Source: a virus (taxonomy: Duplodnaviria; Caudoviricetes). Taken from it: a stretch of DNA of 61,892 nucleotides. The position numbers were made by a program, and so were the translations under genes. Location of the stretch: IMG/VR virus record IMGVR_UViG_3300033741_000103, positions 1 to 61,892 of that record. One strand, 5' to 3'. This document shows positions 10,018 to 58,506 of the stretch, piece by piece. Each line of letters opens with the position of its first letter. The stretch's first letter is position 1. The notes below the pieces were generated by a model that saw nothing but the letters and a program-made list of their open reading frames with translations, ran no database searches and had not been told where the DNA came from.

Positions 10018-10080
10018 TTGACCCACCTCGCTACCTGCGATACATATACGTTAGGCAATGAAGCCCAGAGGTTGAAAGGA
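10018..10080 (+). promoter_or_regulatory. Promoter-operator-hairpin-RBS cassette
   Basis: TTGACC, TCGCTACCTGCGA (10028), TACATA, GGCAATGAAGCC (10054), GAAAGGA. Confidence 0.8.
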
Positions 10081-10086
10081 TCGAGA

Positions 10087-10347
10087 GTGCAGTTTCAAGC
10101 AGAGCCCATAGATCGCCCAAATCAGATGTCTGATCGTGAGATCATCGAGCGCCTTGAGGAGGCGGAATACCAGCAATGGCGATGGGCAAATATGCGCGAC
10201 GGAACGCTGATGCCAGAGGAGGAACCGCCATCCCTGCTAAGCCGGGAAAGCCTACAAATCAGCGTTGCTCTCGGGGCGGCAATTCTGACGGCCATGTTCA
10301 CAGTCATCGGGATAGGGGAGTTCATAGCAAGCGTCTACGGATCTTAG
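10087..10347 (+). CDS. Small membrane protein
   Basis: GTG after GAAAGGA; C-terminal hydrophobic helix. Confidence 0.6.
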   Translation: MQFQAEPIDRPNQMSDREIIERLEEAEYQQWRWANMRDGTLMPEEEPPSLLSRESLQISVALGAAILTAMFTVIGIGEFIASVYGS

Positions 10348-10407
10348 CGGTCAGCGGCCCGGTGGGCCATTGTGCGATACGATCCGTATCGATTGAAGGG
10401 AAATACC

Positions 10408-10962
10408 ATGAAGAAGATCTACATCACCGCCGCCATCATCGCCACAATGTCTGCTCCTGCTTTTGCGGGCGAGGTCCAGTTTGGCGATCGCACCTATAAC
10501 CGGAACAACGCCGAAGCCGTGGCCGAGGCGCGCGCCAATGCAGCTGCAATCGCGGCGCAACAGCAAGGCCAAGCGCAGAGCGCCGACGCCAGCAACAACG
10601 GCGTGACACAGACCGCCACCACCAACTACCGCCGCACCGTTTCCTCCCCAACGGCCCCCAGCATGTCGGCCAATGGGTGCCAAGAGGCGTGGTCGGCAGG
10701 CGTCACTGGCTACTGGCTGGGCGTCTCGGGCGGAAAGGTCACAACCCCGGATTTCTGCAAAGGCAAGATCAACCGCGAGACTATGGAAGCGGCCGGCTTT
10801 GGGCAGACAGTGCAGCAGCAAATGCTGGTCGACACCGTGCCTGAAATCCGGGACGCGGCCATCGCTCAGGGTGTTGCAGTGAAGCGTTCAGGCGGCACGG
10901 CCAGTTCCAAAGGCTCAGCGACCCGGACAGCCGCTGCGGGCGTATCCGGCGCCAATCGCTAA
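10408..10962 (+). CDS. Secreted/periplasmic protein
   Basis: Signal peptide MKKIYITAAIIATMSAPAFA; two Cys. Confidence 0.75.
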   Translation: MKKIYITAAIIATMSAPAFAGEVQFGDRTYNRNNAEAVAEARANAAAIAAQQQGQAQSADASNNGVTQTATTNYRRTVSSPTAPSMSANGCQEAWSAGVTGYWLGVSGGKVTTPDFCKGKINRETMEAAGFGQTVQQQMLVDTVPEIRDAAIAQGVAVKRSGGTASSKGSATRTAAAGVSGANR

Positions 10963-10978
10963 GCTGTAATCGACACTC

Positions 10979-11009
10979 AAAAAGGCGGGGTCTTATTGGC
11001 CCCGCCGTT
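10979..11009. terminator. Hairpin, possible terminator
   Basis: AAAAA-GGCGGGGTC/GGCCCCGCC. Confidence 0.5.
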
Positions 11010-11031
11010 CGCGTGAACAAAGGATGAAGCC

Positions 11032-11385
11032 ATGATGATGCCGCGTACTGAATACGAAATGTCCGACGAAGATCTCGAGATCCTGCTCGACGCCGGAAAG
11101 CCAACGCCTGTGATGATGACCGGTGGATCAACCGGGTCATCCCCGCGAGAAAACGCGACTAGAGCGTGGGAAGCGCTGGGCAAAAAGATGGGCTTTGACG
11201 GTATGTCTGTCCGTCCGATCTCGGGTAAGGGCCAGAAGTTCTTTTCAGCCATCCCCAGCGAGACGGACGAAGCCAAGGCCGAGCGTCTTGAACGGGAAGC
11301 AGCAGAGGCCAGAGTCGCCGAGAGGGACGCGCTGCAAGTCGAAATCGCACGCTGCCAGAAGCGCCTTGCGGAGCTGGATGAATGA
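11032..11385 (+). CDS. Hypothetical protein
   Basis: AAGGA RBS; coupled to the next ORF. Confidence 0.7.
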   Translation: MMMPRTEYEMSDEDLEILLDAGKPTPVMMTGGSTGSSPRENATRAWEALGKKMGFDGMSVRPISGKGQKFFSAIPSETDEAKAERLEREAAEARVAERDALQVEIARCQKRLAELDE

Positions 11386-11498
11386 AGGATCCGCGCGATC
11401 GCAAAAAGCTCCAGCGCAGGTTGGATCTGATCATCGCCGTGCTTTTGATCATCTTCGCCATGCAGGGCTTGAGCGTGTTAGTTAAAATGGTGGGATAA
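11382..11498 (+). CDS. Small membrane peptide (38 aa)
   Basis: ATGA overlap; LIIAVLLIIFAM helix. Confidence 0.5.
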   Translation: MKDPRDRKKLQRRLDLIIAVLLIIFAMQGLSVLVKMVG

Positions 11499-11499
11499 A

Positions 11500-11700
11500 A
11501 TGACATATGAAGAATTGAAAGCCGCTGGTTTCGTGAATCATCACGATTGCGGCTTATGCGGGTCGCCGGTCGGCCACATGATCCATCCAGAAATGGCTTG
11601 CGCTGTTTTCCAGAGCGGGTGCGATTGCGGCGGGCCATATCCAAACTATCGGATTCTCACGCATGATGAATTGGCCGAGATACCCGGAATTGAGATATGA
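11500..11700 (+). CDS. Small Cys/His-rich protein
   Basis: CGLC...CDC. Confidence 0.6.
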   Translation: MTYEELKAAGFVNHHDCGLCGSPVGHMIHPEMACAVFQSGCDCGGPYPNYRILTHDELAEIPGIEI

Positions 11701-11801
11701 AAACCCTCAAAAACGCTTTGTGGATGCTGGGGTATATAATCGTACTGATCGCGCTCACGTATTGGATCATCGCGTTGGGCGCATGGGCCTTGTCGACATA
11801 A
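11697..11801 (+). CDS. Small membrane peptide (34 aa)
   Basis: ATGA overlap; strongly hydrophobic. Confidence 0.5.
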   Translation: MKTLKNALWMLGYIIVLIALTYWIIALGAWALST

Positions 11802-11838
11802 CGAGCAACGGAAGAATCGATCAAATGGGAGACGCATC

Positions 11839-44491: not shown

Positions 44492-44497
44492 CGAAAA

Positions 44498-45178: not shown

Positions 45179-45202
45179 ACCGACACTCGAAAGGAAAACC
45201 CG

Positions 45203-46576: not shown

Positions 46577-46793
46577 TTTTGAAATCGTGTTCTGGGAACA
46601 GCGGCGCATCGCGATCAAGGTGACGGCTGATAACGCCAAAGCCGCTCGGGATGAAGCTGAGGCGATCTGGGACTGCTCCAGCGAGGAGGACATGGAGACG
46701 CTGCCGGATTTCACCGTCGATAATCACGACATAAAATCAACTCAGGTCTACGCGATTGTCGACGGCCAAGGAACGGAGGTTCACGATGAATAG
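46569..46793 (+). CDS. Small acidic protein
   Basis: AAAGGA RBS. Confidence 0.6.
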   Translation: MADFEIVFWEQRRIAIKVTADNAKAARDEAEAIWDCSSEEDMETLPDFTVDNHDIKSTQVYAIVDGQGTEVHDE

Positions 46794-47085: not shown

Positions 47086-47432
47086 CGGACGGTCAGAACG
47101 GCACGAAAGTAACTAGCATGAAAACCATGACACCCGAAAGCCGGTTTGAAAGTGACGGGCTGGCGTGGCGCATCCATTTCCCAAACCTTCTAAAGGAGAT
47201 CTTGGTGAATGATGGCTGCAAGGCATTGGCGGTCCCCCTGAACATTATAGGGCAGACCCTCCACGATCTGGCTGAGTTGGCGATTGAGATAGACGACCCG
47301 CGCTTGCACCTGATGATGTTCGACATGACCCTGTATGACGTCGCGGATCTGGATAAGACCGATAGGGAGGAGTCAGCGCGCACCCGCAAAAGACTGGTGG
47401 AGCAATGTGAGGCCATGAAGGCCGCAAAATAA
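47082..47432 (+). CDS. Hypothetical protein
   Basis: GTGA overlap; GGAGG RBS. Confidence 0.6.
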   Translation: MTDGQNGTKVTSMKTMTPESRFESDGLAWRIHFPNLLKEILVNDGCKALAVPLNIIGQTLHDLAELAIEIDDPRLHLMMFDMTLYDVADLDKTDREESARTRKRLVEQCEAMKAAK

Positions 47433-47452
47433 CGCTTTTGATGCTTCAAATG

Positions 47453-47516
47453 TTTACAACCCTCGCTACTTGCGATATACAGAGGTTAGGCAATGAAGCC
47501 TGAAACTCGGAAAGGA
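47453..47516 (+). promoter_or_regulatory. Promoter-operator-hairpin-RBS cassette
   Basis: TTTACA, TCGCTACTTGCGA (47463), TATACA, AGGCAATGAAGCCT (47488), GAAAGGA. Confidence 0.8.
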
Positions 47517-47522
47517 CGAAAG

Positions 47523-48152
47523 ATGGACATCCTCAGTGAAATCGCTGCGACACTCGGCACCACCGAAGAAAAGGTAAATGCGCGGATCGCGGGCTTGAAG
47601 CTCGGCCCAATCTGTTCGCGTTGCGGCGGATCAGGGAGCTACAGCTTTAACCAGATCGACGGAAGCCGGTGCTATGGCTGCAACGGCTCGGGTCATACAA
47701 ACCCCAAGACGAGCGACCTTCCCGGTATCCTAGAAGCGGCAAAAGCTGCTGTCTCGAACGGCGATCTGGAGCGTTATTTGCAAATCCTGAAAGACCGGAG
47801 TTTCTGCAAGAGAGCGATGAGCCAGATCTTTGCGGCTTGGACTGAAACATCAGTAGCGAAGGCTCTAGGTAGCTCAGGATCTCATATGATCAAAGAGGAT
47901 GAAGTCGCGGGGCTGGCCGAGGTTCGGTCTGCTAACAAGCTGATGGCTGACGCACAGCAGCGCTTTTCAGCCGTTCAATATGACAAGACACTCTGCCCCA
48001 CAAAAAAGGCCGAGATCGCCCGCGCGTCCATCGATGCAATCAATGCCGCTGACTTCGACGTGCCAGCTCAGACCATCACAGAGATGAATCGCTGGATGAG
48101 CCAATTTCGTGAGCGCCAAGCAGCGTATTTCGAGGAACATAAAGGAAGTTGA
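47523..48152 (+). CDS. Protein with DnaJ-type CxxCxGxG Zn finger
   Basis: CSRCGGSG...CYGCNGSG. Confidence 0.7.
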   Translation: MDILSEIAATLGTTEEKVNARIAGLKLGPICSRCGGSGSYSFNQIDGSRCYGCNGSGHTNPKTSDLPGILEAAKAAVSNGDLERYLQILKDRSFCKRAMSQIFAAWTETSVAKALGSSGSHMIKEDEVAGLAEVRSANKLMADAQQRFSAVQYDKTLCPTKKAEIARASIDAINAADFDVPAQTITEMNRWMSQFRERQAAYFEEHKGS

Positions 48153-48153
48153 T

Positions 48154-48408
48154 ATGACTTGTGAGGTTGTTGAAATATCCATTTGGGGCCGGAACAACGA
48201 CGGCAAGGTGAGATCCGGTGAATGCACCTTTCGGGATGGGAAGAAGTGGAGGTGGAGTCGCTCCCTCATGGATGGAAGTTATTACTTCACCATCGACAGC
48301 GGGATGCCGTCGCAATGGTCGATGGCAAATTATGGGAGGATGATTAGCCCGCCAAAGCGCGTAACGGCGCTAAAAAAGAAACTGCAACAGGAAGGGGAAA
48401 AGATATGA
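48154..48408 (+). CDS. Small hypothetical protein
   Basis: AAAGGA RBS. Confidence 0.6.
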   Translation: MTCEVVEISIWGRNNDGKVRSGECTFRDGKKWRWSRSLMDGSYYFTIDSGMPSQWSMANYGRMISPPKRVTALKKKLQQEGEKI

Positions 48409-49883
48409 CTGATCAAAGCAACATGCCCGCCACACTGCGCCGCCTATCTGACATCGTTGATGAGTACGACCAGAAGCGCGCCGCGATGCAGGACAGCATC
48501 AAAGAGTTTCACACTGCGGCCAATGCGCTCGAGAGCCAGACCGTCATTGGCGGCACCTATGTCGGATCGATCTGGTACGGCGCGGCCCCGCGCGTGCAGG
48601 AGCACACGTTTGAAGCCAACCTGCGCAAGTCGGCATGGCAACACGTCTACAAAGGTCTGAACCTTCACCGGATCGCGAGCGCCAGCGATCGCAAGAAATT
48701 CGAGGCTGAGTTTGAAAACTCGCCTGCCTTTACCCTCGACAACCTGCGCGCCACGTTCGGCGCCTATGTGGCGGATCCCCGGCATCACATCCTGAAAGGT
48801 CTGGCCGAGTGTTTCGTTGGTCTGGATCCGGCGTTCAAGAGCCATAGCAAGGTCAAGGTCGGCGTGGCCGGTCTGCCCAAGCGGGTGATCTTGCCCAATG
48901 TCGCCGGCGGATATGGTGCCTATGGCGAGGAACGGCTGAAAGACACGGTCAACGCGCTGCGCGTGTTCGAGGGCCGGCCGCATGTGGAATACCGCCCGTT
49001 CGCGCAATGGATCGCCAACGCCCAGCGCGATCTGGATGAATGGGGGCCGGGCTATCTTTACCGGGAAGGCCGGATGATCGAGCACGATGGCAAGGTATGG
49101 GCAGCAAAGCGGGATCTGCGCAAGCTGGACGCATGGGACGCTGACGACTGGACCGAGTGGCAGGATCCAGAACCGGGCCTTGAGCTGCGCGTGTACGGCA
49201 ACGGCAACGGCCACCTGATCTTTTCAAAGGACAAGCTGCGCCAGATCAATCTGGCACTGGCTGAATTTTACGGCGACGTGCTGCCGGATGCTGAGGGCGA
49301 GGGGGATGACGAGGCGCAGGCCGACCGCGATCTGTTCCGGTCCCGCGAGGTTTCGACTGATCTGCAATACTACCCCACCCCGCAGAAGGTGATCGATCGC
49401 GTGCTGTCCTCCATCAGCCGGGGCGATAACGGCGGGGTGATCCTCGAGCCCAGCTGCGGCGATGGCCGGATGCTCGACACGATCCGCAAGGTCTGGCCTA
49501 GCGCCAAGCGGTTGGGTGTCGAGATCCATCCGGGCCGGGTCGAGGCGGCGCGCGCCAAGGGGCATCTGATCTACAAAGCCAATTTCCTTGAGATGACGCC
49601 AGTGGCCGAGCATGACCTGATCGTGATGAACCCGCCCTTTTACGGCAAGCACTGGAAAAAGCATCTGGCCCACGCGCGCAAGTTTCTGAAACCGCGCACG
49701 ACCCAATACGGCCAGTCTGGCGGAACGCTCATCTGCATCCTACCGGGCAGCGCTTTCTATGACGGCCACCTAGACGACATGGGCATCAGCGAGGCGGCTT
49801 GGACGGATCTGCCGGTTGCCTCATTCAACGAGAGCGGAACCAACATCCCCACCGGCTATGTCGTGATCGGAGCGGGCCGATGA
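48405..49883 (+). CDS. DUF4942 plus amino-DNA-methyltransferase domain protein
   Basis: YYPTP, ILEPSCGDG, VMNPPF, SFNESGT; YGNGNGHL. Confidence 0.8.
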   Translation: MTDQSNMPATLRRLSDIVDEYDQKRAAMQDSIKEFHTAANALESQTVIGGTYVGSIWYGAAPRVQEHTFEANLRKSAWQHVYKGLNLHRIASASDRKKFEAEFENSPAFTLDNLRATFGAYVADPRHHILKGLAECFVGLDPAFKSHSKVKVGVAGLPKRVILPNVAGGYGAYGEERLKDTVNALRVFEGRPHVEYRPFAQWIANAQRDLDEWGPGYLYREGRMIEHDGKVWAAKRDLRKLDAWDADDWTEWQDPEPGLELRVYGNGNGHLIFSKDKLRQINLALAEFYGDVLPDAEGEGDDEAQADRDLFRSREVSTDLQYYPTPQKVIDRVLSSISRGDNGGVILEPSCGDGRMLDTIRKVWPSAKRLGVEIHPGRVEAARAKGHLIYKANFLEMTPVAEHDLIVMNPPFYGKHWKKHLAHARKFLKPRTTQYGQSGGTLICILPGSAFYDGHLDDMGISEAAWTDLPVASFNESGTNIPTGYVVIGAGR

Positions 49884-50269
49884 ACCGGGATGACATTATC
49901 AACTTGAGCGGCTGCCGGATATGCAGTGTGCAGGCTGGATCCCCCTGCCTGACAGGAGAAGGCGGTGAGCGAAAGCGCTGCCACGTCGAAAGGCTCTACA
50001 GCGCTCAGGACCGGCGAAATGGCAAACGCGACAGGACGACAGGCAAGGTCAACTGGACACCCTTTGCCGAACAGCGTTGCCCCGTCTGCCGGAAGATGTT
50101 GAGGGATAGCAAGGGCGCGATCCAGCACGCGATCGACGCGCACGGCCTCAAGCGGGATGACGTGCTCAGGCTGCGCGTTAAATTCATGGCCGAGAATGAT
50201 CGCTTAGCCAGAAAGCCCGCTGAACCCGCCTCGGATGATTTTGACTTGATCGATGACAGCGACGTGTAA
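49880..50269 (+). CDS. Zn-finger protein
   Basis: CRIC...C...CH and CPVC...H...H. Confidence 0.6.
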   Translation: MNRDDIINLSGCRICSVQAGSPCLTGEGGERKRCHVERLYSAQDRRNGKRDRTTGKVNWTPFAEQRCPVCRKMLRDSKGAIQHAIDAHGLKRDDVLRLRVKFMAENDRLARKPAEPASDDFDLIDDSDV

Positions 50270-50296
50270 CCTATTGCGATAGTGTGTATATTTTAC

Positions 50297-50358
50297 TTGC
50301 ACACCATCGCTACTTGCGATATACGTTGATTAAGGGCAATGGAGCCCGTCACAAAGGA
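50297..50358 (+). promoter_or_regulatory. Promoter-operator-hairpin-RBS cassette
   Basis: TTGCAC, TCGCTACTTGCGA (50307), TATACG, GGGCAATGGAGCCC (50334), AAAGGA. Confidence 0.8.
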
Positions 50359-50366
50359 ACGCCGCC

Positions 50367-50585
50367 ATGATCCGCCAAACAGCCTCAGCAACAGACTTTG
50401 CAAAATGGGAAGCCCAAGCCCGCGAGATGGATGAAGCCGGGCTGTTCTACGCTCTGAACGATTGCCGGAAGGCAGCCGAAGCGATGAAGGGCTGGAACCC
50501 CGAGCGCGAAGGCTACTACGCAGATCAGGCTTTCACCTTTGCCGACGAGATCCGGCGCCGCCGCAACGAGAGGAAAGCAGCATGA
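50367..50585 (+). CDS. Small hypothetical protein
   Basis: After the cassette RBS. Confidence 0.7.
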   Translation: MIRQTASATDFAKWEAQAREMDEAGLFYALNDCRKAAEAMKGWNPEREGYYADQAFTFADEIRRRRNERKAA

Positions 50586-50878
50586 ACATCCTTCACAATC
50601 GCCCAAACGCATACGCCGACCGGCTCAAGCCTTCTTTCGGGATCCCGGAGATCAAGCCGAAGCCGGGCGAAACATTCGACAGGGAAAACGATCTTTGGCT
50701 CAGCGACTGCGGGACGATAGTTTACCACCGCGACGGGCATATCACTCAGGGCACCGTCTTGAGCGCCACCAGCGATGCGCTGATCGAATACGACCGCCGC
50801 CATATGACACCTTCGGCTTTTGCAGACTGCTACGCTGACGGCGACGAGAGTATGATGCTCTACGGCGCCAACGGCTAA
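50582..50878 (+). CDS. Small hypothetical protein
   Basis: ATGA overlap. Confidence 0.6.
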   Translation: MNILHNRPNAYADRLKPSFGIPEIKPKPGETFDRENDLWLSDCGTIVYHRDGHITQGTVLSATSDALIEYDRRHMTPSAFADCYADGDESMMLYGANG

Positions 50879-50906
50879 GGCCAAACCAATAGGGGCCAGC
50901 GTGCCC

Positions 50907-50927
50907 CGCAACCGGGCCATGACGCCC
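50907..50927 (+). promoter_or_regulatory. Promoter-less hairpin variant
   Basis: CGCAACC-GGGCCATGACGCCC before an RBS. Confidence 0.6.
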
Positions 50928-50945
50928 AGAGAGAGGGACGACAAG

Positions 50946-51137
50946 ATGATCGAGAAACTGAAAGACGGCGTAAGGGTCTGGGAGCCAACGCACCCCCAAG
51001 ACATCGCCCTGCTGCAGCGCGCTGAGGGCTCGCTGTTCGGCGAAACCACATTCCCGAGCGGCTGGAAGTCACCAGCTGGAACACAGACCGCGCGCAATGG
51101 CGTGCTGGTCGAGAACATCGAAGGGTCGCAGACATGA
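50946..51137 (+). CDS. Small hypothetical protein
   Basis: GAGGGA RBS after the hairpin. Confidence 0.55.
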   Translation: MIEKLKDGVRVWEPTHPQDIALLQRAEGSLFGETTFPSGWKSPAGTQTARNGVLVENIEGSQT

Positions 51138-51850
51138 GCGCCGATAACCTGAAATCCATCATCAAGCGGATCCGCGCGATGCGCGCCAAGGCCAGCAATG
51201 ACGCCTCGAGCGAGGCCGAAGCGGAAGCCGCCGCCGGTCGCGCCGCAAAGCTGATGGCCGAATATGATCTGGCCGAAAGCGATCTCGGATCTGATCAGGA
51301 GCGCGACGAGGTCGCCTATGCCACCGCGAGTGGCGGCAAGACATTGCACCCGGTCGATCGTGGTACGGCAATGGCGATCGCCAAGCTGACCGAAACTGAG
51401 GTCTGGCAAAGCGATGGCAGGCTGAACTTTGCCGGGATGCCGATGGATCTCGAGATGGCGATCTATCTGGTGGAGATGCTGCGCAGCGCGGCCGAGCGCG
51501 GTTGGATGGGTGGCTATGCCGATCAGCCGATGACAGGCCGGATGGCGGTCGGTGATTTCCGCGATGGGTTTTATCTCGCCTTTGCCAGCCATGTGTCACA
51601 GAGGATCATGGATCTGGCCCGAGAGCGCGAGGCGGCGCGTGCCACGTCGACCGGCACGGATCTGATGATCACTAAGCGCGGCCTGATCACCACCAAGCTG
51701 AAAGAGGATGGGCTGCGCCTTAAAACGCGCAAGACCAAGCAGCGCAGCGGATCCCATGCTGGCCGAGATGCCGGGCAGGCGGCAGCCGGAAAGGTTGGCT
51801 TTGGCCGGCCGATCACATCGACATCGAGCGGCACCCGCCAACTGACATAA
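51134..51850 (+). CDS. DUF2786-domain protein
   Basis: IIKRIRAMRAKA...EAEAAAGRAAKLMAEYDL. Confidence 0.75.
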   Translation: MSADNLKSIIKRIRAMRAKASNDASSEAEAEAAAGRAAKLMAEYDLAESDLGSDQERDEVAYATASGGKTLHPVDRGTAMAIAKLTETEVWQSDGRLNFAGMPMDLEMAIYLVEMLRSAAERGWMGGYADQPMTGRMAVGDFRDGFYLAFASHVSQRIMDLAREREAARATSTGTDLMITKRGLITTKLKEDGLRLKTRKTKQRSGSHAGRDAGQAAAGKVGFGRPITSTSSGTRQLT

Positions 51851-51946
51851 AATAGCCCGCTGGGGCGCGGAACGCCTGCGCCCCACCCCATCACACCCGC
51901 CACGGACGTTTGAGACGTCACAGGCAGATACAGGAGGCCATAGGCC

Positions 51947-52252
51947 ATGTCCGACACTAAGTTTATTCCAGAGGGCCACCAGCCCTACACCGTCTTACTT
52001 ATGATGAGCGACGACTTGCGCAGCGACGAGTGTTGCGCCTCAGATTGGGTTCGCCGGGTCTATGTCGAGGGTGAGGCCAGCAAAGCCGGGATTGAACGGA
52101 TGATTAAGATCGCCCGTTGTGATCTGGCGGATATGTTCGGCTGGACGGATCCAGATGACGATCCAGATCCGGTTGAGGTCGAGCAGCGCAAGAGCGCTAT
52201 GGAGCCGGTTGCGATCTATGCCGGGCATATTTTTGACATCTATCAGCCATGA
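51947..52252 (+). CDS. Hypothetical protein
   Basis: AGGAGG RBS. Confidence 0.65.
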   Translation: MSDTKFIPEGHQPYTVLLMMSDDLRSDECCASDWVRRVYVEGEASKAGIERMIKIARCDLADMFGWTDPDDDPDPVEVEQRKSAMEPVAIYAGHIFDIYQP

Positions 52253-52440
52253 CACTCGACACCGATCATCAGCGCGCCGACATCAACGCGCATCCATCCT
52301 ATGCCCTTGGCTTTAATGATGCCGCCAACCTTGAGCCGCTTTTTGATGATGCGAGTCCAGAATATCGAGCCGGTTGGCTCGGCTACCAAATTGCTAGGTC
52401 GGCATTTTATACCCTTGCTGGATCTCGCTACTCGCGATAG
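52249..52440 (+). CDS. Small hypothetical protein
   Basis: ATGA overlap; 3' end runs into the next promoter. Confidence 0.5.
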   Translation: MTLDTDHQRADINAHPSYALGFNDAANLEPLFDDASPEYRAGWLGYQIARSAFYTLAGSRYSR

Positions 52441-52504
52441 TTTTACCTATCTGGCAATGAAGCCCGCACTTTGGATGATGAGTGTTCGCCCTCTAACGAA
52501 AGGA
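52415..52504 (+). promoter_or_regulatory. Promoter-operator-hairpin-RBS cassette with extended leader
   Basis: TTGCTG, TCGCTACTCGCGA (52425), TAGTTT, GGCAATGAAGCC (52453), GAAAGGA (52498). Confidence 0.7.
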
Positions 52505-52511
52505 GCCAGCC

Positions 52512-52526
52512 ATGCACCGGGACTAA
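52512..52526 (+). other. Minigene Met-His-Arg-Asp-stop
   Basis: ATG CAC CGG GAC TAA after a GAAAGGAG RBS. Confidence 0.4.
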
Positions 52527-52542
52527 AGATCCCACGCGACAC

Positions 52543-52571
52543 CCACCCGGCCAAGCGCCGGGTGGTTTTCT
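52543..52571 (+). terminator. Intrinsic terminator
   Basis: CCACCCGG/CCGGGTGG followed by TTTTCT. Confidence 0.7.
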
Positions 52572-52604
52572 ATTGAACCGAAAAACAGCAAAGGAAGAAC
52601 CGAG

Positions 52605-52916
52605 ATGAAACAGACAATCGCCATAGCCGCCACAGCCCTTGCGCTGATGAGCGCGCCGGCACTCGCCAAGGAATCGCCCGCCAATAACTGCAAGTTGCTG
52701 GGCGATGTCGCCGGTAAGATCATGTCCCTGCGACAGGATGGCGTTACGCCGTCGCAGCTGATGGACGCCCTCAGCAGCGATAAATTCGACCAGCTGATCT
52801 TGGTCGCCTTTAACACGCCGCGCTACTCGTCGCCGGATTTCAAGACCACCGCCGTTGAGGACTTTCGGTCAGAGATCGAGGTTGAGTGCTACCGAAAGGC
52901 TGGAGCAGCGGAATGA
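52605..52916 (+). CDS. Secreted/periplasmic protein
   Basis: Signal peptide MKQTIAIAATALALMSAPALA; Cys pair. Confidence 0.75.
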   Translation: MKQTIAIAATALALMSAPALAKESPANNCKLLGDVAGKIMSLRQDGVTPSQLMDALSSDKFDQLILVAFNTPRYSSPDFKTTAVEDFRSEIEVECYRKAGAAE

Positions 52917-53644
52917 AGTATATCGCCGTCGACACCGAAACGACCGGGATGGATCCTGAAAAGGATAAGCTGGTCGAGATCGCCGCCGTGCCGAGCAAAG
53001 GCGTTCACCGCAGCACGCTGGTCAATCCCGGCGTGAAGCAAATCGACTTTGGCGCAATGGCCGTCCATCACATCACTCAGGACATGGTCAAGGATGCGCC
53101 CGGGCCGCTCGATGCGATCGCCGCGGTTGGTCTGGCGGATCTGGATAAGACCGATACGCTGGTATTTCACAACGCCGAATTTGATCGCCGGTTTCTGCCG
53201 TCAAACCTGTTGGCTCAGCCTTGGATCTGTACCTATCGCTGCGCGCTGCATTTGGTGCCCAACGCGGAAAGCCACAGTAACGGCTCGCTTTGGTATGAGC
53301 TGGGCCTAGATCATCCCATGCCAGAGGACGCCGGGAAGATGCCGCACCGGGCGCTGTTCGACGCCATTATGACCTTCGACATCGTGAGCCACTTTATCGA
53401 CAAGCACTTTGTCGAAAGCGCTGACGCAGATCCGACGAAGCTCGATATTGGCATGGCGCTGGCCTATCTGATCTCGCTATCGACCAGCCCGGTTGTCCTG
53501 AGCAAGTGCAATTTCGGAAAGCACCGGGGCCAAAGCTGGGCGGAAATTCCGTCCGACTTTATGCGCTGGGTGTTGAAGCAGGATTTCGACTTTGACACGC
53601 GCTTTACCTGCCAGCACTGGCTGACCGAGAGGAGGCACGGATAA
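52913..53644 (+). CDS. DEDDh 3'-5' exonuclease (exonuclease X-like)
   Basis: VDTETTG, HNAEFD, HRALFDA, FGKHRG. Confidence 0.9.
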   Translation: MKYIAVDTETTGMDPEKDKLVEIAAVPSKGVHRSTLVNPGVKQIDFGAMAVHHITQDMVKDAPGPLDAIAAVGLADLDKTDTLVFHNAEFDRRFLPSNLLAQPWICTYRCALHLVPNAESHSNGSLWYELGLDHPMPEDAGKMPHRALFDAIMTFDIVSHFIDKHFVESADADPTKLDIGMALAYLISLSTSPVVLSKCNFGKHRGQSWAEIPSDFMRWVLKQDFDFDTRFTCQHWLTERRHG

Positions 53645-53871
53645 TGGCACGGAAGCGGGTGCCGCCGCCGTACCGCTATTTCAAGGCGCGGTGGCAGCTG
53701 CGCGGTGGGCATGTTGATGTCGATATGTTCGTCGCAAATCATCCCTCCCTGACATTCCAGAACATGGGCAAGCTGGTGATGTCTGAGGAGGATTTTAAGG
53801 TGTTCAGAAAGTCGTCGCCCAATTTCAATTTCGAGAAACGAGAGGATCAAAGTGATGCCGTCAGTCGATAA
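53644..53871 (+). CDS. Small hypothetical protein
   Basis: TAATG overlap. Confidence 0.55.
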   Translation: MARKRVPPPYRYFKARWQLRGGHVDVDMFVANHPSLTFQNMGKLVMSEEDFKVFRKSSPNFNFEKREDQSDAVSR

Positions 53872-54166
53872 AATGGTGAAGGGTAAAATCCGTAAACTTG
53901 CCCGCGAGGGGCGCCTCATCGATGAGGCGTTCAATATCTTCCAGCGCAAGGTTTTTACCGGAGCGCCAGAGTCTCAGGTCGAGGCGATGCGGATCTGCTT
54001 CTTTGCGGGCGCGGCTGAGCTGCACGCGCTTATGATGGCTTCACTTGATGAAGGCGTCTCGGAAACGGATGACGATATGACGTTTATGACGCAGTGGGTC
54101 GATGAGCTTGAGGCATTTCATCTCAAGGTCATCGCCGCAGACGCAGCAAAGGGGATGAGAAATTGA
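53852..54166 (+). CDS. Hypothetical phage protein
   Basis: GAGGA RBS; MRICFFAGA. Confidence 0.65.
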   Translation: MMPSVDKMVKGKIRKLAREGRLIDEAFNIFQRKVFTGAPESQVEAMRICFFAGAAELHALMMASLDEGVSETDDDMTFMTQWVDELEAFHLKVIAADAAKGMRN

Positions 54167-54453
54167 TCCGGCAATATGGTGCAACCTGCGGCCGGGTCAG
54201 ATTGATCGACACGCCGCGCGGCCGTATGGATGGCGGGGTTATTCCAGCTGGGTCGATATGTCGGCCGGGTGGCTGGATGCCCCGCGTCATTGTCGAGGCG
54301 TGGATCCCGAGAGAGTACGGCACATGGGATCCGGCCAGCCGTCAGATGGAAAGCAAGAGGATCCGGGGTGGGCATATTGCCCAAGTCCGGTGCCTCGGCA
54401 CTGGCCGACAATTCAAGATCAGCGACGTGTGGCTGATCGATAACGAGGAATGA
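54163..54453 (+). CDS. Hypothetical protein
   Basis: TTGA overlap. Confidence 0.55.
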   Translation: MIRQYGATCGRVRLIDTPRGRMDGGVIPAGSICRPGGWMPRVIVEAWIPREYGTWDPASRQMESKRIRGGHIAQVRCLGTGRQFKISDVWLIDNEE

Positions 54454-54462
54454 GGATATTCG

Positions 54463-54843
54463 ATGACCGAGCAGAGTAAAAAACGAGCGGCGTTCTGGAT
54501 GTGGATCGAGAAGGATCCGGTGCGCTGCTACCGGCTGTTCAAGGGCGACTGGGCGGATTACGTCGAACGGCTGCCAGACTACATGCGGCCCGGAGTGGTG
54601 CGGTACATCCTTTTCGGCGTTAAGCCGGGATCCTTTCTCTGCGCAATTTTCGCCGCTGAGTGGCATCTCGCCGGCATAAAGGCTGACGCCGTGAACGCCG
54701 GGCTGATCTCCACCTATCGGGAGCTTCTGGCGTCCGGGTGCCCAAGCGAGTGCTGGGGATCCAGTCAGAGCGTGAGGGAGTGGTGCGTGGATGGCGGATT
54801 GCTCCGTGGCTCAGATCTGCCAGAGGTTCCAGATGACGCATAA
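54463..54843 (+). CDS. Hypothetical phage protein
   Basis: GAGGA RBS; RYILFGVKPGSFL. Confidence 0.65.
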   Translation: MTEQSKKRAAFWMWIEKDPVRCYRLFKGDWADYVERLPDYMRPGVVRYILFGVKPGSFLCAIFAAEWHLAGIKADAVNAGLISTYRELLASGCPSECWGSSQSVREWCVDGGLLRGSDLPEVPDDA

Positions 54844-55174
54844 AGGCATAGATCCAATCATCGCCCGAAGTATGGAAGAAAAGATGATCAAGGCGTTGGG
54901 GGGCGCCGGGAAAAGCCGGGTGAAATCTGAGCGCGCAGCCTCTAAGAGGATCACGAGAACGATGATCGAGGCTGAGGAAAAGCGCGAGATGGTGCTCAGC
55001 CTTCTCAAATCAGACGGCCCGCTTTCAATAGAGGATCTGATCAAGAGGATCCCGTCGATGGGCCATGTGCAAGTCAAAGGCCAGCTGACCAAACTCAAAG
55101 AGCGGCAGCTTGCCAAGAATATCGGCAAAGGTAGCGTCAGCTTATGGGTTGCCGTGAACACGTCCCGTCCATAG
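54833..55174 (+). CDS. Winged-helix-like protein
   Basis: VLSLLKSDGPLSIEDLI...LTKLKERQLA. Confidence 0.55.
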   Translation: MTHKGIDPIIARSMEEKMIKALGGAGKSRVKSERAASKRITRTMIEAEEKREMVLSLLKSDGPLSIEDLIKRIPSMGHVQVKGQLTKLKERQLAKNIGKGSVSLWVAVNTSRP

Positions 55175-55222
55175 CAATATGGGCGGGATCGCCGCTTTTC
55201 AGTGTAAACTGTCGATTTGCAC

Positions 55223-55287
55223 TTGCGGGATCTCGCTACCATCGATAAGTGTTGGTTATAGGCAATGAAGCCTGACACCTGAAAGGA
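55223..55287 (+). promoter_or_regulatory. Promoter-operator-hairpin-RBS cassette
   Basis: TTGCGG, TCGCTACCATCGA (55233), TAAGTG, AGGCAATGAAGCCT (55260), GAAAGGA. Confidence 0.75.
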
Positions 55288-55294
55288 CGATCAA

Positions 55295-55612
55295 ATGAAT
55301 ATCCGCATCGACATACGCACAGAAGTTTTCGACATCCGAGAAGCGACGGCAGCCACCATCGAAAAGGCGATGCTGCAGGTCCAGCAGGGTGTTCACGAAA
55401 TCGTTGCTGAGCACGATTACAAAAGCGAGGCGGGCCGTCAGCTCATCGAGATGAAAGTCTCGAAAATGATCCTGTCAGAAGCCAAGCGCATCAACAGCAC
55501 CGGGCACATGACCGATAGCGTCGAAGGCTTCATCAACGCCCAGATCGTTAAGAAACTGGTCAACGAAGCTGCAGAACCGGGATCCATGATTGTGACCGCG
55601 ATCTATAGCTAA
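55295..55612 (+). CDS. Hypothetical protein
   Basis: After the cassette RBS. Confidence 0.7.
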   Translation: MNIRIDIRTEVFDIREATAATIEKAMLQVQQGVHEIVAEHDYKSEAGRQLIEMKVSKMILSEAKRINSTGHMTDSVEGFINAQIVKKLVNEAAEPGSMIVTAIYS

Positions 55613-55644
55613 TCGAGCGGGGCCGGGCAACCGGCTCCCCCATG

Positions 55645-55673
55645 AACCGGGCAACGAAGCCCAACGGAAAGGA
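55645..55673 (+). promoter_or_regulatory. Promoter-less hairpin plus RBS
   Basis: AACC-GGGCAACGAAGCCC (55649), GAAAGGA; preceded by a GCAA-loop hairpin at 55619-55638. Confidence 0.7.
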
Positions 55674-55676
55674 TAA

Positions 55677-55952
55677 ATGATGGCTTTGACAGTTCAGGAT
55701 TTTTGCGGGAACCGCCTCGAGATCGTTCCGGCTGAGGGTGATACCACAGTCACGATCGCGGATCTGGCGCAGTTCGTCACATTCGACAGCCAAGCCGCGC
55801 GCGCCAAGGGGGATCCTGAGCATAAGGCAGCCTATCACGCGCTGCGGGATCACTACGCCAAGCATGAAATGCAGGCCGGTGGCTACCATCCCGAAACCGG
55901 CTTCTGGGTCGTGTTCAAGGATGGCAGTTCCATCCGTTACAATCACAATTAA
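55677..55952 (+). CDS. Hypothetical protein
   Basis: After hairpin and RBS. Confidence 0.7.
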   Translation: MMALTVQDFCGNRLEIVPAEGDTTVTIADLAQFVTFDSQAARAKGDPEHKAAYHALRDHYAKHEMQAGGYHPETGFWVVFKDGSSIRYNHN

Positions 55953-55971
55953 AGGCAGAGAGGATAAGACT

Positions 55972-56247
55972 ATGACCAGAACCCACGAACAGCACATGGC
56001 TGCGAAGCACGCCAAGATGGCCCAGCGCAAAGCAGAAGAAGCCGCGCCCGTTACGTCCATCGACATGACGCCGACATTCGAGGAATCGGTGCGCTGCTCA
56101 ATCGCGCTTCTCGAGTGCGGTGACTATCAGGGCCGGAAATTCGCGCGCGAGGAGCTGCTGCGCTATGGCCGCGAGCTGGACCGGCTCAAAGCCGCCAGCG
56201 CCGGTTTGGCTTTCGACACCGCTGACACGCCGCTTGAGGGGGAATGA
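55972..56247 (+). CDS. Hypothetical protein
   Basis: GAGGA RBS. Confidence 0.6.
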   Translation: MTRTHEQHMAAKHAKMAQRKAEEAAPVTSIDMTPTFEESVRCSIALLECGDYQGRKFAREELLRYGRELDRLKAASAGLAFDTADTPLEGE

Positions 56248-56248
56248 G

Positions 56249-56671
56249 ATGACCCAGTATATTGTGAAAGCCGATGAGCCGTTTCCCGGCTACATCCAGT
56301 CGACCGTGCTGGACGATGGCACCGTCGCTTATACCGATGGCATGACGCCAGAGGATTACAGCAAGGATCGCGGCTATGCGATCCGCCTGATCGATGCGGC
56401 CGAGCTCACGCGCTTGTTCAACGAGCACGAAGCCGGCCTGATCACCGACCCCTCGCCCATCACTGAGGATGATTGGCATGATGCCTTGAATTGCCTGCCG
56501 CCGTCCCGCTGGGGCCACAGCCGCGGGGTCGAGCTGTTTCATATCAGCGAGCGGATCACCGGGGATCTGGTCGATTGGTTCGCGCAGGTTGGCGGTCAGT
56601 ATTTCCGGTTCGTTGATCTCTGCAACCGGGATCCCGCCGAGCTGGCCGCGAAAGTGGCTGCGAAGATCTGA
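56249..56671 (+). CDS. Hypothetical protein (DUF1419-like, tentative)
   Basis: LNCLPP...LFHISE...GQYF. Confidence 0.55.
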   Translation: MTQYIVKADEPFPGYIQSTVLDDGTVAYTDGMTPEDYSKDRGYAIRLIDAAELTRLFNEHEAGLITDPSPITEDDWHDALNCLPPSRWGHSRGVELFHISERITGDLVDWFAQVGGQYFRFVDLCNRDPAELAAKVAAKI

Positions 56672-56693
56672 CAGAGCGAGGGAGGCAATCAAA

Positions 56694-56948
56694 GTGGACA
56701 TCAACCTACATGAGAACGGCGCCACCTGCCCAGCCTGCGAGCTACGGCGAGAGGAGGAGAATACCAAGATCTCAGGTCGGGCCGACGTTCCGTGCAATAA
56801 TTGCGGCGGGACAGGCCGGATCTCAGCCGGGGTTCAGACCGTAATCAACATGAACACCGCTTGGGCCAAAAAGCATTATTGGCCCGAGCGAGAAGCGCGC
56901 TGGCGGATATTCAATGAAGCCCAAGAAAGACGCGCTGCGGCCCAGTAA
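56694..56948 (+). CDS. Small Zn-finger protein
   Basis: CPAC...CNNCGGTG; GGAGG RBS. Confidence 0.6.
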   Translation: MDINLHENGATCPACELRREEENTKISGRADVPCNNCGGTGRISAGVQTVINMNTAWAKKHYWPEREARWRIFNEAQERRAAAQ

Positions 56949-56967
56949 AATAAGGTGCGAATTGCAC

Positions 56968-57031
56968 TTGTCAGACATCGCGCTAATCGATAGTTGTTGG
57001 ATATGGGCAATGAAGCCTGACATCAGAAGGA
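56968..57031 (+). promoter_or_regulatory. Promoter-operator-hairpin-RBS cassette
   Basis: TTGTCA, TCGCGCTAATCGA (56978), TAGTTG, GGGCAATGAAGCCT (57005), GAAGGA. Confidence 0.75.
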
Positions 57032-57039
57032 ACGATCAA

Positions 57040-57255
57040 ATGACCACCCCTCACCAATTCACACTTTCCGAAATTCAGATGACGGCCGCTCGCGAATGGT
57101 GCGAACAGGCTGGTGTTACCATCACCACCATTACTGGCGGCGATAGTCTGAATGTGGCTGAGGTAGTCGGATTTGATCTCGAGAAGATCCCGGCGCGTGT
57201 CGCTTTGGATGTAGCCGGCAAGGAAGCCGAATTTCTTTGCGACCACGATTTTTAA
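57040..57255 (+). CDS. Small hypothetical protein
   Basis: After the cassette RBS. Confidence 0.65.
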   Translation: MTTPHQFTLSEIQMTAAREWCEQAGVTITTITGGDSLNVAEVVGFDLEKIPARVALDVAGKEAEFLCDHDF

Positions 57256-57265
57256 TTTTTGATTA

Positions 57266-57290
57266 TGGGCAACGAAGCCCACCGAAAGGA
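57266..57290 (+). promoter_or_regulatory. Hairpin plus RBS
   Basis: TGGGCAACGAAGCCCA, GAAAGGA. Confidence 0.7.
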
Positions 57291-57296
57291 CAGACC

Positions 57297-57644
57297 ATGA
57301 CAGAGATTAAACGCACGTTCGCCGAAGATGGCAGCCGGTACGAAATCGATTGGGGGCCATGCCATCCCGATCGCGGCTTTTGCCAGATCGATACCGATCA
57401 GGACGCGAGCTATTTCGGGATCTGGACGAACCCCGAGCGCATGATCATCGCCAGCTTCATCGAAGGCGACATCGAGGTTGAAACAGCTACCGACCCAGCA
57501 GACTACCGGACAGCGCTGGTCGCCTGCCTGACGCGCTACAAGCACCGTAGCCGCAGCCACGCGATGATCGATCTGGGCCTGTCTGGCCGGGCAGACATAC
57601 AGGATCAGTTTAACGCCCTCGGGCTCAATACGTTCACCTACTGA
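57297..57644 (+). CDS. Hypothetical protein
   Basis: QIDTDQDASYFGIWTNP motif; after hairpin and RBS. Confidence 0.7.
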   Translation: MTEIKRTFAEDGSRYEIDWGPCHPDRGFCQIDTDQDASYFGIWTNPERMIIASFIEGDIEVETATDPADYRTALVACLTRYKHRSRSHAMIDLGLSGRADIQDQFNALGLNTFTY

Positions 57645-57656
57645 GAGGATCCAGCC

Positions 57657-57854
57657 ATGCCACGCTATGCAATCGAAGCCAGCTACACCGGGATCAACGT
57701 GCACCTGATGAAGAAAGAGGATGCCGTTCAGATCCTCTCTCAGCGATACGACGACGAGGAGGAGGCTGATGGTTTCGCATTTTGTATGAACGTCAAAGCC
57801 GGGCAGCAATATCACTACAGGGTCATCCCGGCGCCAGAGCCAGAGGCCCAGTAA
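57657..57854 (+). CDS. Small hypothetical protein
   Basis: GAGGA RBS. Confidence 0.6.
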   Translation: MPRYAIEASYTGINVHLMKKEDAVQILSQRYDDEEEADGFAFCMNVKAGQQYHYRVIPAPEPEAQ

Positions 57855-57872
57855 AATAAGGTGCGATACAAG

Positions 57873-57937
57873 TTGACACGTCTCGCTACATGCGATAAGT
57901 GTTGATTATCGGGCAATGAAGCCCACACCTGAAAGGA
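57873..57937 (+). promoter_or_regulatory. Promoter-operator-hairpin-RBS cassette
   Basis: TTGACA, TCGCTACATGCGA (57883), TAAGTG, GGGCAATGAAGCCC (57911), GAAAGGA. Confidence 0.85.
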
Positions 57938-57943
57938 AACAAA

Positions 57944-58174
57944 ATGGCTTTTTCAACTGAGTTCTCCACACGCAAATATGAATTGTCCCACGGTCGCAAG
58001 CCGAAGGGCACAGGCAGCTGGGCCTTTCTGGTCATGCAGGGTCGGACAGAAGTTGAAACCGTTTTTGTTCCCGGCTCGATGTCACTGGCAGACGCTAAGA
58101 CGTGGATGCGGAGCTACGGCCGCACAAGCTACAGCCAGTCGACAGACTTTTTGGAAGTCGAAGTCGCACCTTAA
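57944..58174 (+). CDS. Small hypothetical protein
   Basis: SHGRKPKGTGSWAF; after the cassette. Confidence 0.7.
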   Translation: MAFSTEFSTRKYELSHGRKPKGTGSWAFLVMQGRTEVETVFVPGSMSLADAKTWMRSYGRTSYSQSTDFLEVEVAP

Positions 58175-58176
58175 TT

Positions 58177-58211
58177 CGCAACCGGGCCATGACGCCTGAA
58201 CCTTGAAAGGA
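58177..58211 (+). promoter_or_regulatory. Promoter-less hairpin variant plus RBS
   Basis: CGCAACC-GGGCCATGACGCCT, GAAAGGA. Confidence 0.6.
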
Positions 58212-58217
58212 TACCCG

Positions 58218-58475
58218 ATGACCATTAGCACAATTCAAGCCGCGAACCTCGCCACGCGCTACCATGACGCGATGACGATGGTGAGCACGCAATCATCCCT
58301 CCATCTGGCAGGGCGGATCTCGCCACGGCAGGCGCTGGAAGCCTATCTGCAAGCCTGCAAGGTTTGCGGCGTCCAGCTGCACAATGAGCACTGGGAAGCC
58401 AATGCCGAAATAGTGGTTGTCGAGCTGACCCAAAAGCGCCGTCACGCATTTAAGAAAATGCTGGAGATCTCTTAA
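58218..58475 (+). CDS. Small hypothetical protein
   Basis: After hairpin and RBS. Confidence 0.65.
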   Translation: MTISTIQAANLATRYHDAMTMVSTQSSLHLAGRISPRQALEAYLQACKVCGVQLHNEHWEANAEIVVVELTQKRRHAFKKMLEIS

Positions 58476-58477
58476 CC

Positions 58478-58506
58478 AACCGGGCAACGGAGCCCAGCCG
58501 AAAGGA
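58478..58506 (+). promoter_or_regulatory. Promoter-less hairpin plus RBS
   Basis: AACC-GGGCAACGGAGCCC, GAAAGGA. Confidence 0.7.

Follow-up and report, generated by a model that had tools for sequence, protein, structure and literature searches.

The stretch of DNA analyzed here, called the window in what follows, is the IMG/VR virus record IMGVR_UViG_3300033741_000103 over its whole length of 61,892 bases. A 14-base hairpin lies in this window between promoter and ribosome binding site (RBS), ahead of 14 early genes. According to the predicted structure, it would be made of a 4-bp stem (three invariant G-C/C-G pairs and one covarying outer pair) closed by a 6-nt loop A-A-Y-G-R-A. The reading that we favor, at about even chances, is that this hairpin is an RNA-level module of the 5' leader, which caps early messages with a stem-loop and presents the RBS. 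Five observations suggest that the element belongs to the RNA, in the leader of early transcripts: where the hairpin lies, on which strand, that some copies have no promoter, that G-U variants occur and that the outer pair covaries. The promoter-less copies in particular argue for an RNA-level role. The hairpin looks like an undescribed, portable mRNA leader signal.

When the whole window was searched with the core GGC-MAYGRM-GCC (GGC[AC]A[CT]G[AG][AC]GCC), 14 matches were obtained on the + strand and none on the - strand, and all 14 copies were intergenic. The strict pattern GGGCMAYGRMGCCC matched 8 times, 0.03 matches being expected from 100 shuffles, and GGGC-N6-GCCC matched 15 times against 2.65 expected (maximum among the shuffles, 6). 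The copies are confined to two rightward-transcribed non-structural blocks, with one copy at 10 kb and 13 copies in the 43-58.5 kb region; none is found in the leftward structural block (14-42 kb). The 14 sense-strand copies reported in the first-pass annotation of this DNA were all recovered at their places, 10054 and 52453 being the starts of the GGC in 14-mers that begin at 10053 and 52452. The loop, which had been described there as conserved, is of five types (AATGAA in six copies, AACGAA in three, AATGGA and CATGAC in two each, AACGGA in one); a sense-strand hairpin with a constrained loop is indeed present. The covariation of the outer pair was confirmed as far as G-C (eight copies) versus A-T (47488 and 55260) is concerned; two G-T copies (57005 and 58184) and two mismatched ones (A/C at 10053, T/C at 52452) had gone unmentioned. 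The nearness to a GAAAGGA-type RBS was also borne out, with a gap of 3-8 nt in 13 of the 14 copies (32 nt at 52452), and in 13 copies the 3' end of the hairpin is 14-21 nt from the start codon.

Nine copies are located downstream of a repeated promoter/operator block, in which a -35 box (C)TTGnnn and a -10 box TAnnnn are separated by a 17/18-nt spacer containing the palindromic operator TCGCTAnnTGCGA. In the block at 43060-43108 (+ strand), for example, TTGTCA is followed by the 17/18-nt spacer with operator TCGCTAATTGCGA, the -10 box, 8 nt and the hairpin. On the + strand, these nine copies are AGGCAATGAAGCCC at 10053-10066 (outer A/C mismatch; operator starting at 10028), ahead of a GTG start at 10087; GGGCAATGGAGCCC at 43109-43122 (operator 43081), ahead of a gene for 51 amino acids at 43140, and again at 50334-50347 (operator 50307), ahead of the gene at 50367; GGGCAACGAAGCCC at 44465-44478 (operator 44439), ahead of the gene at 44498; AGGCAATGAAGCCT, with an A-U outer pair, at 47488-47501 (operator 47463) and 55260-55273 (operator 55233), ahead of the genes at 47523 and 55295; TGGCAATGAAGCCC at 52452-52465 (outer U/C mismatch; operator 52425); GGGCAATGAAGCCT, with a G-U outer pair, at 57005-57018 (operator 56978), ahead of the gene at 57040; and GGGCAATGAAGCCC at 57911-57924 (operator 57883), ahead of the gene at 57944. 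From the end of the -10 box to the first base of the hairpin, 6-8 nt were counted in all nine cases. At sigma-70 promoters, transcription begins about 7 nt past the -10 box. The predicted starts of the corresponding RNAs thus fall about 0-2 nt or less from the first base of the hairpin, which would make it a 5'-terminal stem-loop. The earlier assignment of nine copies to predicted mRNA 5' ends agrees with this geometry.

The copy at 52452 belongs to a particular unit (52403-52571), in which the operator promoter and the hairpin are followed by a GAAAGGAG RBS, by an open reading frame (ORF) of four codons at 52512 (ATG CAC CGG GAC TAA) and by a strong intrinsic terminator (52543-52571, + strand) made of a 9-bp G+C stem and then TTTTCT. 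The terminator ends the short transcript begun by the hairpin. This transcript of ~120 nt lies upstream of the gene at 52605 and may be either a small RNA with the hairpin in it or a leader/attenuator. In the predicted fold, the 5' arm can instead pair with GCCAG beside the start codon (folding z-score -1.58).

The five other copies, also on the + strand, have no operator block and four of the five follow AACC, as had been annotated. Two of them are intercistronic and preceded by a G+C-rich hairpin: GGGCCATGACGCCC at 50914-50927, 6 nt 3' of the hairpin 50892-50907 and before the gene at 50946, and GGGCAACGAAGCCC at 55649-55662, 8 nt 3' of the GCAA-loop hairpin 55619-55640 and before the gene at 55677. 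Two others are intercistronic and close to a stop codon, namely GGGCCATGACGCCT (G-U outer pair) at 58184-58197, 9 nt past the stop and before the gene at 58218, and GGGCAACGGAGCCC at 58482-58495, 6 nt past the stop and before the gene at 58513. The fifth, GGGCAACGAAGCCC at 57267-57280, lies 11 nt past the stop of the upstream gene, the gene at 57297 being next. No promoter-like sequence was detected at four of these copies (-6.0 to 0.6 bits), which are sited 6-9 nt past a stop codon or 6-8 nt past a G+C-rich hairpin without U-tract. The copy at 57267 abuts a TTGCGA-18-GATTAT match, and the start predicted from that match would fall inside the hairpin. The G+C-rich hairpins 50892-50907 and 55619-55640, which have no U-tract and precede two promoter-less copies by 6-8 nt, give a hairpin-linker-hairpin layout which would suit endonucleolytic processing between cistrons.

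Conversely, two operator-bearing promoters of the window, at 42344 and 4255, have no hairpin. Since the hairpin is also found behind different promoters elsewhere (see below), hairpin and operator are separable modules. The dual DNA+RNA regulon proposed for this phage by the first-pass annotation is not supported by these observations, since in other phages this 12-14 nt hairpin comes after promoters and operators of quite another kind, and operator promoters occur here without it. As for the operator itself, at least 11 promoters contain the palindrome TCGCnnnnnGCGA(T/C)A between their -35 and -10 boxes, among them those at 4159-4269 and 42344 of the window, and a related Roseovarius prophage has the same operator. 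Candidate binders are the helix-turn-helix (HTH) protein encoded at 60015-60437 and the product of the divergent 238-amino-acid gene at 60355-61071.

In order to follow the hairpin outside the window, 2.9 million viral contigs were scanned for the hairpin followed by GAAAGGA, and 8 other contigs were obtained. A start codon lies downstream of every match, and most of the matches follow a recognizable -35/-10 pair, whose type differs from contig to contig. With composition-matched controls in the same collection, a stem-swapped pattern gave 1 independent sequence and a loop-reversed pattern 2 matches, compared with 8 for the real pattern. G007, a viral record of 89 kb, has its own repeated promoter, and each of the 10 copies of this promoter is followed by the hairpin. 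Furthermore, a metagenome scan yielded 48 stretches with the same architecture and many further promoter types (e.g. L126, L112/L116, L113, L114, L104 and L128). In L126, seven copies were counted, six of which accompany the six copies of its promoter while one is placed between cistrons; promoter-less intercistronic copies occur in L113 as well. When an E. coli-type promoter matrix was applied, 30 of the 83 instances with enough upstream sequence reached at least 6 bits, versus 126 of 3000 random positions taken as control, and the -10 box ended 7-11 nt before the hairpin in 20 of these 30 instances (19 of the 126 for the control). The 12-nt core GGCAAYGRAGCC is found unchanged behind unrelated promoters and ahead of unrelated genes in many phages.

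The hairpin was also found in phages whose host is known by name. A Roseovarius prophage related to the window phage (ParB-like protein 72% identical, early genes syntenic) has three copies, one of them with the loop AATCAA, and a Salipiger prophage has one. Among five named phages found via the terminase, only the cultured temperate Paracoccus phage vB_PkoS_Pkon1 carries the hairpin (L168, record 44143-44600), in the order CTTGACA-17-TAAATC promoter with a palindrome in its spacer, hairpin, AAAGGAG, p72 and the XRE regulator p71. From these three cases, Rhodobacteraceae are the likely hosts of the carrier phages. A scan of bacterial genomes returned 19 stretches from scattered taxa, for about 9 expected by our own estimate, and only the Roseovarius and Salipiger prophage matches were clearly real. 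Megablast of the 43-60 kb region of the window against named phages found nothing, and at 8 loci of distant relatives, reached via the DNA-polymerase exonuclease (29-49% identical), no such hairpin was seen.

Two arrangements recur among the carriers. In several temperate phages (Pkon1, L171, L016/L034 and L113), a single hairpin heads a cassette composed of a palindrome [GCC(A/T)...] promoter, a small ORF and an HTH regulator; the cassette of Pkon1 sits between holin and endolysin. By analogy, such an architecture resembles anti-CRISPR/aca or other moron cassettes. In a family of marine contigs (L013, L084, L087, L091, L097, L098, L101, L119 and L123, one of them from a 148-kb viral record), the hairpin stands behind a conserved ACAGTTGA plus a terminator-like hairpin and ahead of a conserved protein of 137-143 amino acids without assigned function.

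The structure was then considered at the RNA level. In the local mRNA context, RNAfold gave the hairpin a pair probability of 0.75-1.0 in 12 of the 14 copies of the window, the exceptions being 10053, with three pairs at about 0.9, and 52452 (about 0.48). The free energy of the isolated hairpins is between -3.6 and -6.1 kcal/mol. For the alignment, a relaxed pattern with a downstream RBS and start codon gave 103 matches, from which 19 were dropped by eye (aberrant loops, coding-like); the 84 instances retained correspond to 79 distinct 24-mers. No variation is seen in this alignment at the three inner pairs or at loop position 2, and the composition of the loop over the 79 rows is A(73)/G/C, A(79), U(54)/C(23)/G(2), G(77)/C(2), A(56)/G(22)/U(1), A(73)/C(6). 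The outer pair is GC in 68 rows, AU in 3, GU in 2, UA in 2, CG in 1 and unpaired in 3. Of 9 rows with a changed 5' outer base, 7 have a changed 3' base too, against 2 of the 70 rows that keep a 5' G (Fisher p = 4e-7); the changes go back to five or more separate events (window, L128, two in L112, and L010). This covariation speaks for base pairing rather than a protein site on the duplex, and G-U pairs are legal only in sense-strand RNA. Pairing is supported at the only position that is free to vary; the remainder is read as sequence.

A longer stem was rejected, as the next two flanking positions (fifth and sixth) pair in only 29 and 31 of the 79 rows (37-39%). Among 1325 AAYGRA loops in 731 kb, 89 have a GGC/GCC stem and few have another paired stem; an any-stem scan of the loop in these 731 kb showed no excess of other stems and none ahead of an RBS, an earlier and looser version of the scan having given pure noise. 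In the window, a covariance model (R1) placed the 14 copies on top, by construction, and added two weak matches, at 57211-57234 and 43301-43326. The former contains CGGCAAGGAAGCCG (57216-57229), inside the coding sequence 57040-57255, with a C-G outer pair and an AAGGAA loop as in L126; it has no RBS downstream, and it is probably a chance match. The latter arises from the internal GGGCAACGAG of a long stem at 43300-43338 (CCAGCGGGG ... CCCCGCTGG) between the 51-amino-acid gene and a ParB-like gene. A match to a known Rfam family, named in the first-pass annotation as a refutation, was not found: nothing reached gathering score in the whole window, and when E up to 10 was allowed in 42900-59000, the 3 matches obtained all lay off the hairpins. 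A pairing partner of the loop, looked for from 60 nt upstream to 120 nt downstream, was found for none of 13 of the 14 copies. In Roseovarius 16S RNA, no 6-nt Watson-Crick or G-U complement of the loop is present, and the duplex energy of the 14-mer is no better than that of shuffles. Finally, the loop AUG as the start of an upstream ORF was rejected by eye, ACG being found in 4 of the 14 loops and the frames being inconsistent.

Host genes do not share this feature. In 301 Rhodobacteraceae genomes, the 14-mer pattern had 42 matches in 35 genomes, about as many as the reversed-pattern control (around 44 by hand tally); of 30 host loci inspected, 2 had a promoter/RBS context, both prophage-like, and the others were coding-like, without RBS and start. 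In the Roseovarius genome that contains the related prophage, the 3' tail of 16S RNA ends in ...CCUCCUUUCU, which is complementary to GAAAGGA. The RBSs of genes led by a hairpin are uniform, with -9.3 to -10.1 kcal/mol in 11 of 13. The genes led by a hairpin are unrelated small ORFans, most of them without PHROG or Pfam match, and the 77 hairpin-led ORFs (before context filter) form four small clusters and 63 singletons.

A phage-encoded reader of the hairpin was also looked for. No protein family is common to all 14 carrier sources (blastp, 1e-5); the widest shared one is the Cro/CII-like HTH regulator of window 60015-60437, present in 5 of the 14 carriers compared. Between G007, with its 10 copies, and the window, only the terminase and a long tail gene (21985-26004) are shared, and the window proteins have nothing in common with the complete 27-kb G001. 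A scan of 56 window proteins against PHROGs or Pfam revealed no RNA-binding family, and a recurrent small basic (arginine-rich, N-like) protein was not seen after the hairpins either, such proteins being too diverse to exclude by sequence.

On this basis, the following mechanism can be proposed for the leader module. Every copy lies immediately 5' of a strong RBS matched to a 16S tail of the host type. The hairpin would act after transcription. It would shield the 5' end of the mRNA, or a new end created by intercistronic cleavage, against 5'-end-dependent decay, and it would keep the adjacent RBS single-stranded and presented to the 30S subunit. The processing or stabilizing role suggested by the first-pass annotation is therefore viable as a part of this reading. 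Since the 12-nt core is unchanged across phages, a generic stabilizer is insufficient and a reader of the sequence, acting in trans, is needed; the core would be recognized by such a putative factor. A conserved host component, exploited only by phages, is more likely in this role than a phage-specific regulator, because no phage protein family is common to all carriers. Since host genes lack the hairpin, a simple "good leader" is less plausible, and a dedicated phage regulator must still be considered. Going one step further, we tentatively suggest, as something less probable than the leader module as such, that the hairpin is a phage-only "leader tag" set on the early mRNAs of many unrelated phages that infect Rhodobacteraceae and hosts like them, and read by one conserved trans-acting factor. 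The reader of this tag could be a host protein, the ribosome or the RNA-decay machinery, hijacked to favor phage messages.

Several observations weigh against the leader module. Being invariant, the three inner pairs supply no evidence of covariation, and they were also fixed in part by the search patterns; a pure stabilizer would need neither an invariant loop nor an invariant stem. That the hairpin is not a feature of host genes would be odd if a host factor simply favored RNAs carrying it. The RBSs led by a hairpin are only marginally stronger than the rest (medians of -9.5 and -8.4 kcal/mol, one-sided p = 0.055), and the nine promoters of the window are weak, with 1.9-7.5 bits on the E. 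coli-type matrix. In addition, the motif is rare overall, being found with the RBS pattern in 8 of 2.9 million viral contigs.

Among the other explanations, the hairpin as an operator for a sequence-specific RNA-binding regulator, by which translation of the early gene set would be switched off or on together, seems to us unlikely, yet deserving of attention. T4 RegA, the phage coat-protein operators and Aca2 are models for such a control. The invariant 12-nt core, loop included, would be accounted for, as would the restriction of multiple copies to early regions, the phage-specific distribution and the distance of 14-21 nt to the start codon, which falls within the 30S footprint as its size is usually given. 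Several temperate phages moreover have a single copy at the head of an operon with a small ORF and an HTH regulator (p72-p71 in Pkon1), and the HTH family of window 60015-60437 is found in 5 of the 14 carriers compared. Against this explanation stand the lack of a protein family common to all carriers and of an RNA-binding family among the window proteins scanned, and the position of the hairpin, which overlaps neither the RBS nor the start codon; the Aca2-like translational operator put forward by the first-pass annotation fits poorly, since the hairpin excludes the RBS. A DNA-level element appears improbable. It would be either an initially transcribed sequence adapted to promoter escape or a promoter-proximal operator whose half-sites GGGC/GCCC are bound by a dimeric DNA-binding protein, as the inverted repeat of the outer bases, the fixed place 6-11 nt past the -10 box in most cases and the presence of the hairpin at every copy of the repeated promoters of G007 and L126 might suggest. 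However, 5 of the 14 window copies have no promoter, nor have some in L126 and L113, and the asymmetric loop is always oriented like the gene. The outer position, furthermore, changes on both sides together and stays complementary (A-U, U-A, C-G), and G-T variants are present in the sense reading only; both observations fit base pairing better than a pair of identical protein half-sites.

We give little credit to a recombination junction with little RNA function of its own, at which early genes would be shuffled as cassettes in the manner of the PeSL of T4-like phages. The hairpin does flank small unrelated ORFan genes in a variable early region, and the same block occurs in otherwise unrelated phages; but the conserved 12-14 nt are judged too short for efficient homologous exchange, the flanks differ wholly between phages, and the outer pair covaries, a sign of selection on pairing. 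Moreover, in the portion of the report used here, PeSL cassettes are composites of terminator and promoter (PMC4122927), whereas the hairpin of the window sits after the promoter. The idea of a nut/boxB-like site, where a phage antiterminator would bind the nascent hairpin and RNA polymerase would read through the terminators of early operons, had also been raised by the first-pass annotation, and we find it hardly credible. In its favor, the hairpin lies close to where early transcripts begin and has a purine-rich loop that is conserved, and the copy at 52452 has a strong intrinsic terminator about 80 nt downstream, ahead of the next gene. Nevertheless, the 4-bp stem and the 6-nt AAYGRA loop differ from the 5-bp stem and GNRA-like pentaloop of boxB as usually described, and a boxA would not fit into the RNA ahead of the hairpin. 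Words resembling boxA (consensus as commonly quoted) are under-represented in the window, with 5 matches against 10.6 expected, none of them adjacent to a copy. Fourteen copies are present, five of them inside operons and directly ahead of an RBS; on the + strand from 42 to 62 kb, only one convincing terminator lies downstream of a copy, and no recurrent small arginine-rich protein is encoded behind the hairpins.

The leader module is thus retained as our preferred reading. Whatever its exact role, the hairpin is a conserved part which can be separated from promoter, operator and gene, and which is common to unrelated phages, including the cultured, mitomycin-inducible Pkon1, whose host is non-pathogenic; it is therefore experimentally approachable. 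If a host factor reads it, the hairpin would show how phages mark their own early messages and would provide a compact expression element for Rhodobacteraceae. If its role were limited to the stabilization of 5' ends, the strict conservation of its sequence would still need explaining.

Two observations concern the records themselves. The final 126 bases of the window (61767-61892) repeat bases 2-127 exactly, and for this reason the record probably represents a complete genome of about 61,766 bp, circular or terminally redundant, rather than the "79%-complete linear fragment" of its label. In L108, at the contig end (- strand, 190-600), there is a tandem array with a unit of about 21 nt (GGATACCATGGAGTGAATGTT-like), unrelated to the hairpin.

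In the literature searched (supplementary tables not covered), the exact 14-mer was found in no paper and five distinct 12-mer variants in none about phages or bacteria, judging by title and abstract; in the Pkon1 paper, hairpin, stem-loop and promoter do not occur. Among known systems, stabilizing 5'-terminal stem-loops of the ompA type, in bacterial and phage mRNAs, have at most a few unpaired 5' bases and are placed upstream of the RBS, and the predicted geometry of the nine promoter-linked copies fits this description. Such stabilizers act by structure alone and are not known to be conserved in sequence between genes, whereas 12 nt including the loop are invariant here across phages. The lambda-type nut site is composed of boxA and boxB, is bound by N and is present in two copies. 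Like the present element, it is read as RNA and includes a small hairpin, purine-rich in its loop, close to where early transcripts start; stem size, loop size and loop sequence are different here, boxA is missing, and the 14 copies are adjacent to RBSs, including inside operons. The RNA target of Aca2 is formed by the inverted repeat of its own operator and includes the RBS. As in that system, a stem-loop is found in a phage 5' leader, and some single-copy carriers have the order palindrome promoter, small ORF and HTH regulator. The operator of the window lies in the -35/-10 spacer, upstream of the predicted transcript start, and the RBS is 3-8 nt beyond the hairpin, in contrast to Aca2.

Mini-ykkC, or the guanidine-II riboswitch, which we take to be Rfam RF01068, comprises two tandem hairpins with 4-nt ACGR loops in which the C is required. 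The A-Y-G-R core of the present loop resembles ACGR, and a small G+C stem is likewise found just ahead of the RBS. However, the hairpins are single here, the loop has 6 nt with U preferred to C (54 to 23), and no Rfam match to a hairpin was obtained at E up to 10. Hairpins bound by CsrA/RsmA carry GGA in the loop. Such a site was rejected, as loop position five is G in only 22 of the 79 distinct rows and 56 rows have GAA. With the PeSL cassettes, as far as they are described in the portion of the report already mentioned, the likeness is that of a repeated promoter-plus-stem-loop block bordering small variable early genes. PeSLs are lineage-specific, whereas the hairpin is here the part that is conserved between lineages; an identity with them was rejected, since the order is promoter, hairpin and RBS, and there is no U-tract.

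The closest analogue is provided by the SAS/ESAS of Cluster K mycobacteriophages (Pope et al. 2011, PMC3203893; 188-genome survey, PMC12699233), of which the hairpin would be an analogue and not a member. In the excerpts of these two reports used here, SAS is described as a 13-nt asymmetric GGG...CCC motif, present in 11-19 copies per genome, in one orientation and in the non-structural arm. The motif precedes the starts of unrelated genes, is accompanied by an upstream inverted repeat in half of the cases and is absent from host genomes (PMC3203893, PMC12699233). According to the same excerpts, SAS has been known since 2011, its mechanism has not been found and its function was still unknown in 2025 (PMC3203893, PMC12699233). 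When the SAS definition was applied, namely GGGATAGGAGCCC with at most 2 mismatches (PMC3203893, PMC12699233), none of the 14 hairpins fitted; 3 did so at 3 mismatches, which is chance level (18 matches in total versus 19.9 expected). As these excerpts have it, SAS contains the RBS and lies 3-7 bp from the start, whereas the hairpin ends 14-21 nt away with a separate GAAAGGA in between; SAS has 13 nt instead of 14, belongs to phages of another host phylum, and is reported only within Cluster K (with one near-copy in Corndog), whereas the hairpin spans unrelated phages. On the same sources, the likeness is nevertheless extensive. Both are short asymmetric motifs with symmetric outer bases, present in many copies in one orientation within the non-structural arm, ahead of unrelated genes, and neither is found in host genomes. 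An inverted repeat, regarded as the target of a DNA-binding protein, precedes about half of the SAS, and an operator is found here at 9 of the 14 copies. Even the 3' half of the GGA variants of the window (GGAGCCC) is that of SAS. If the hairpin is a leader tag, it would represent a new class of cis-regulatory RNA and a functional counterpart of the SAS motif of mycobacteriophages.

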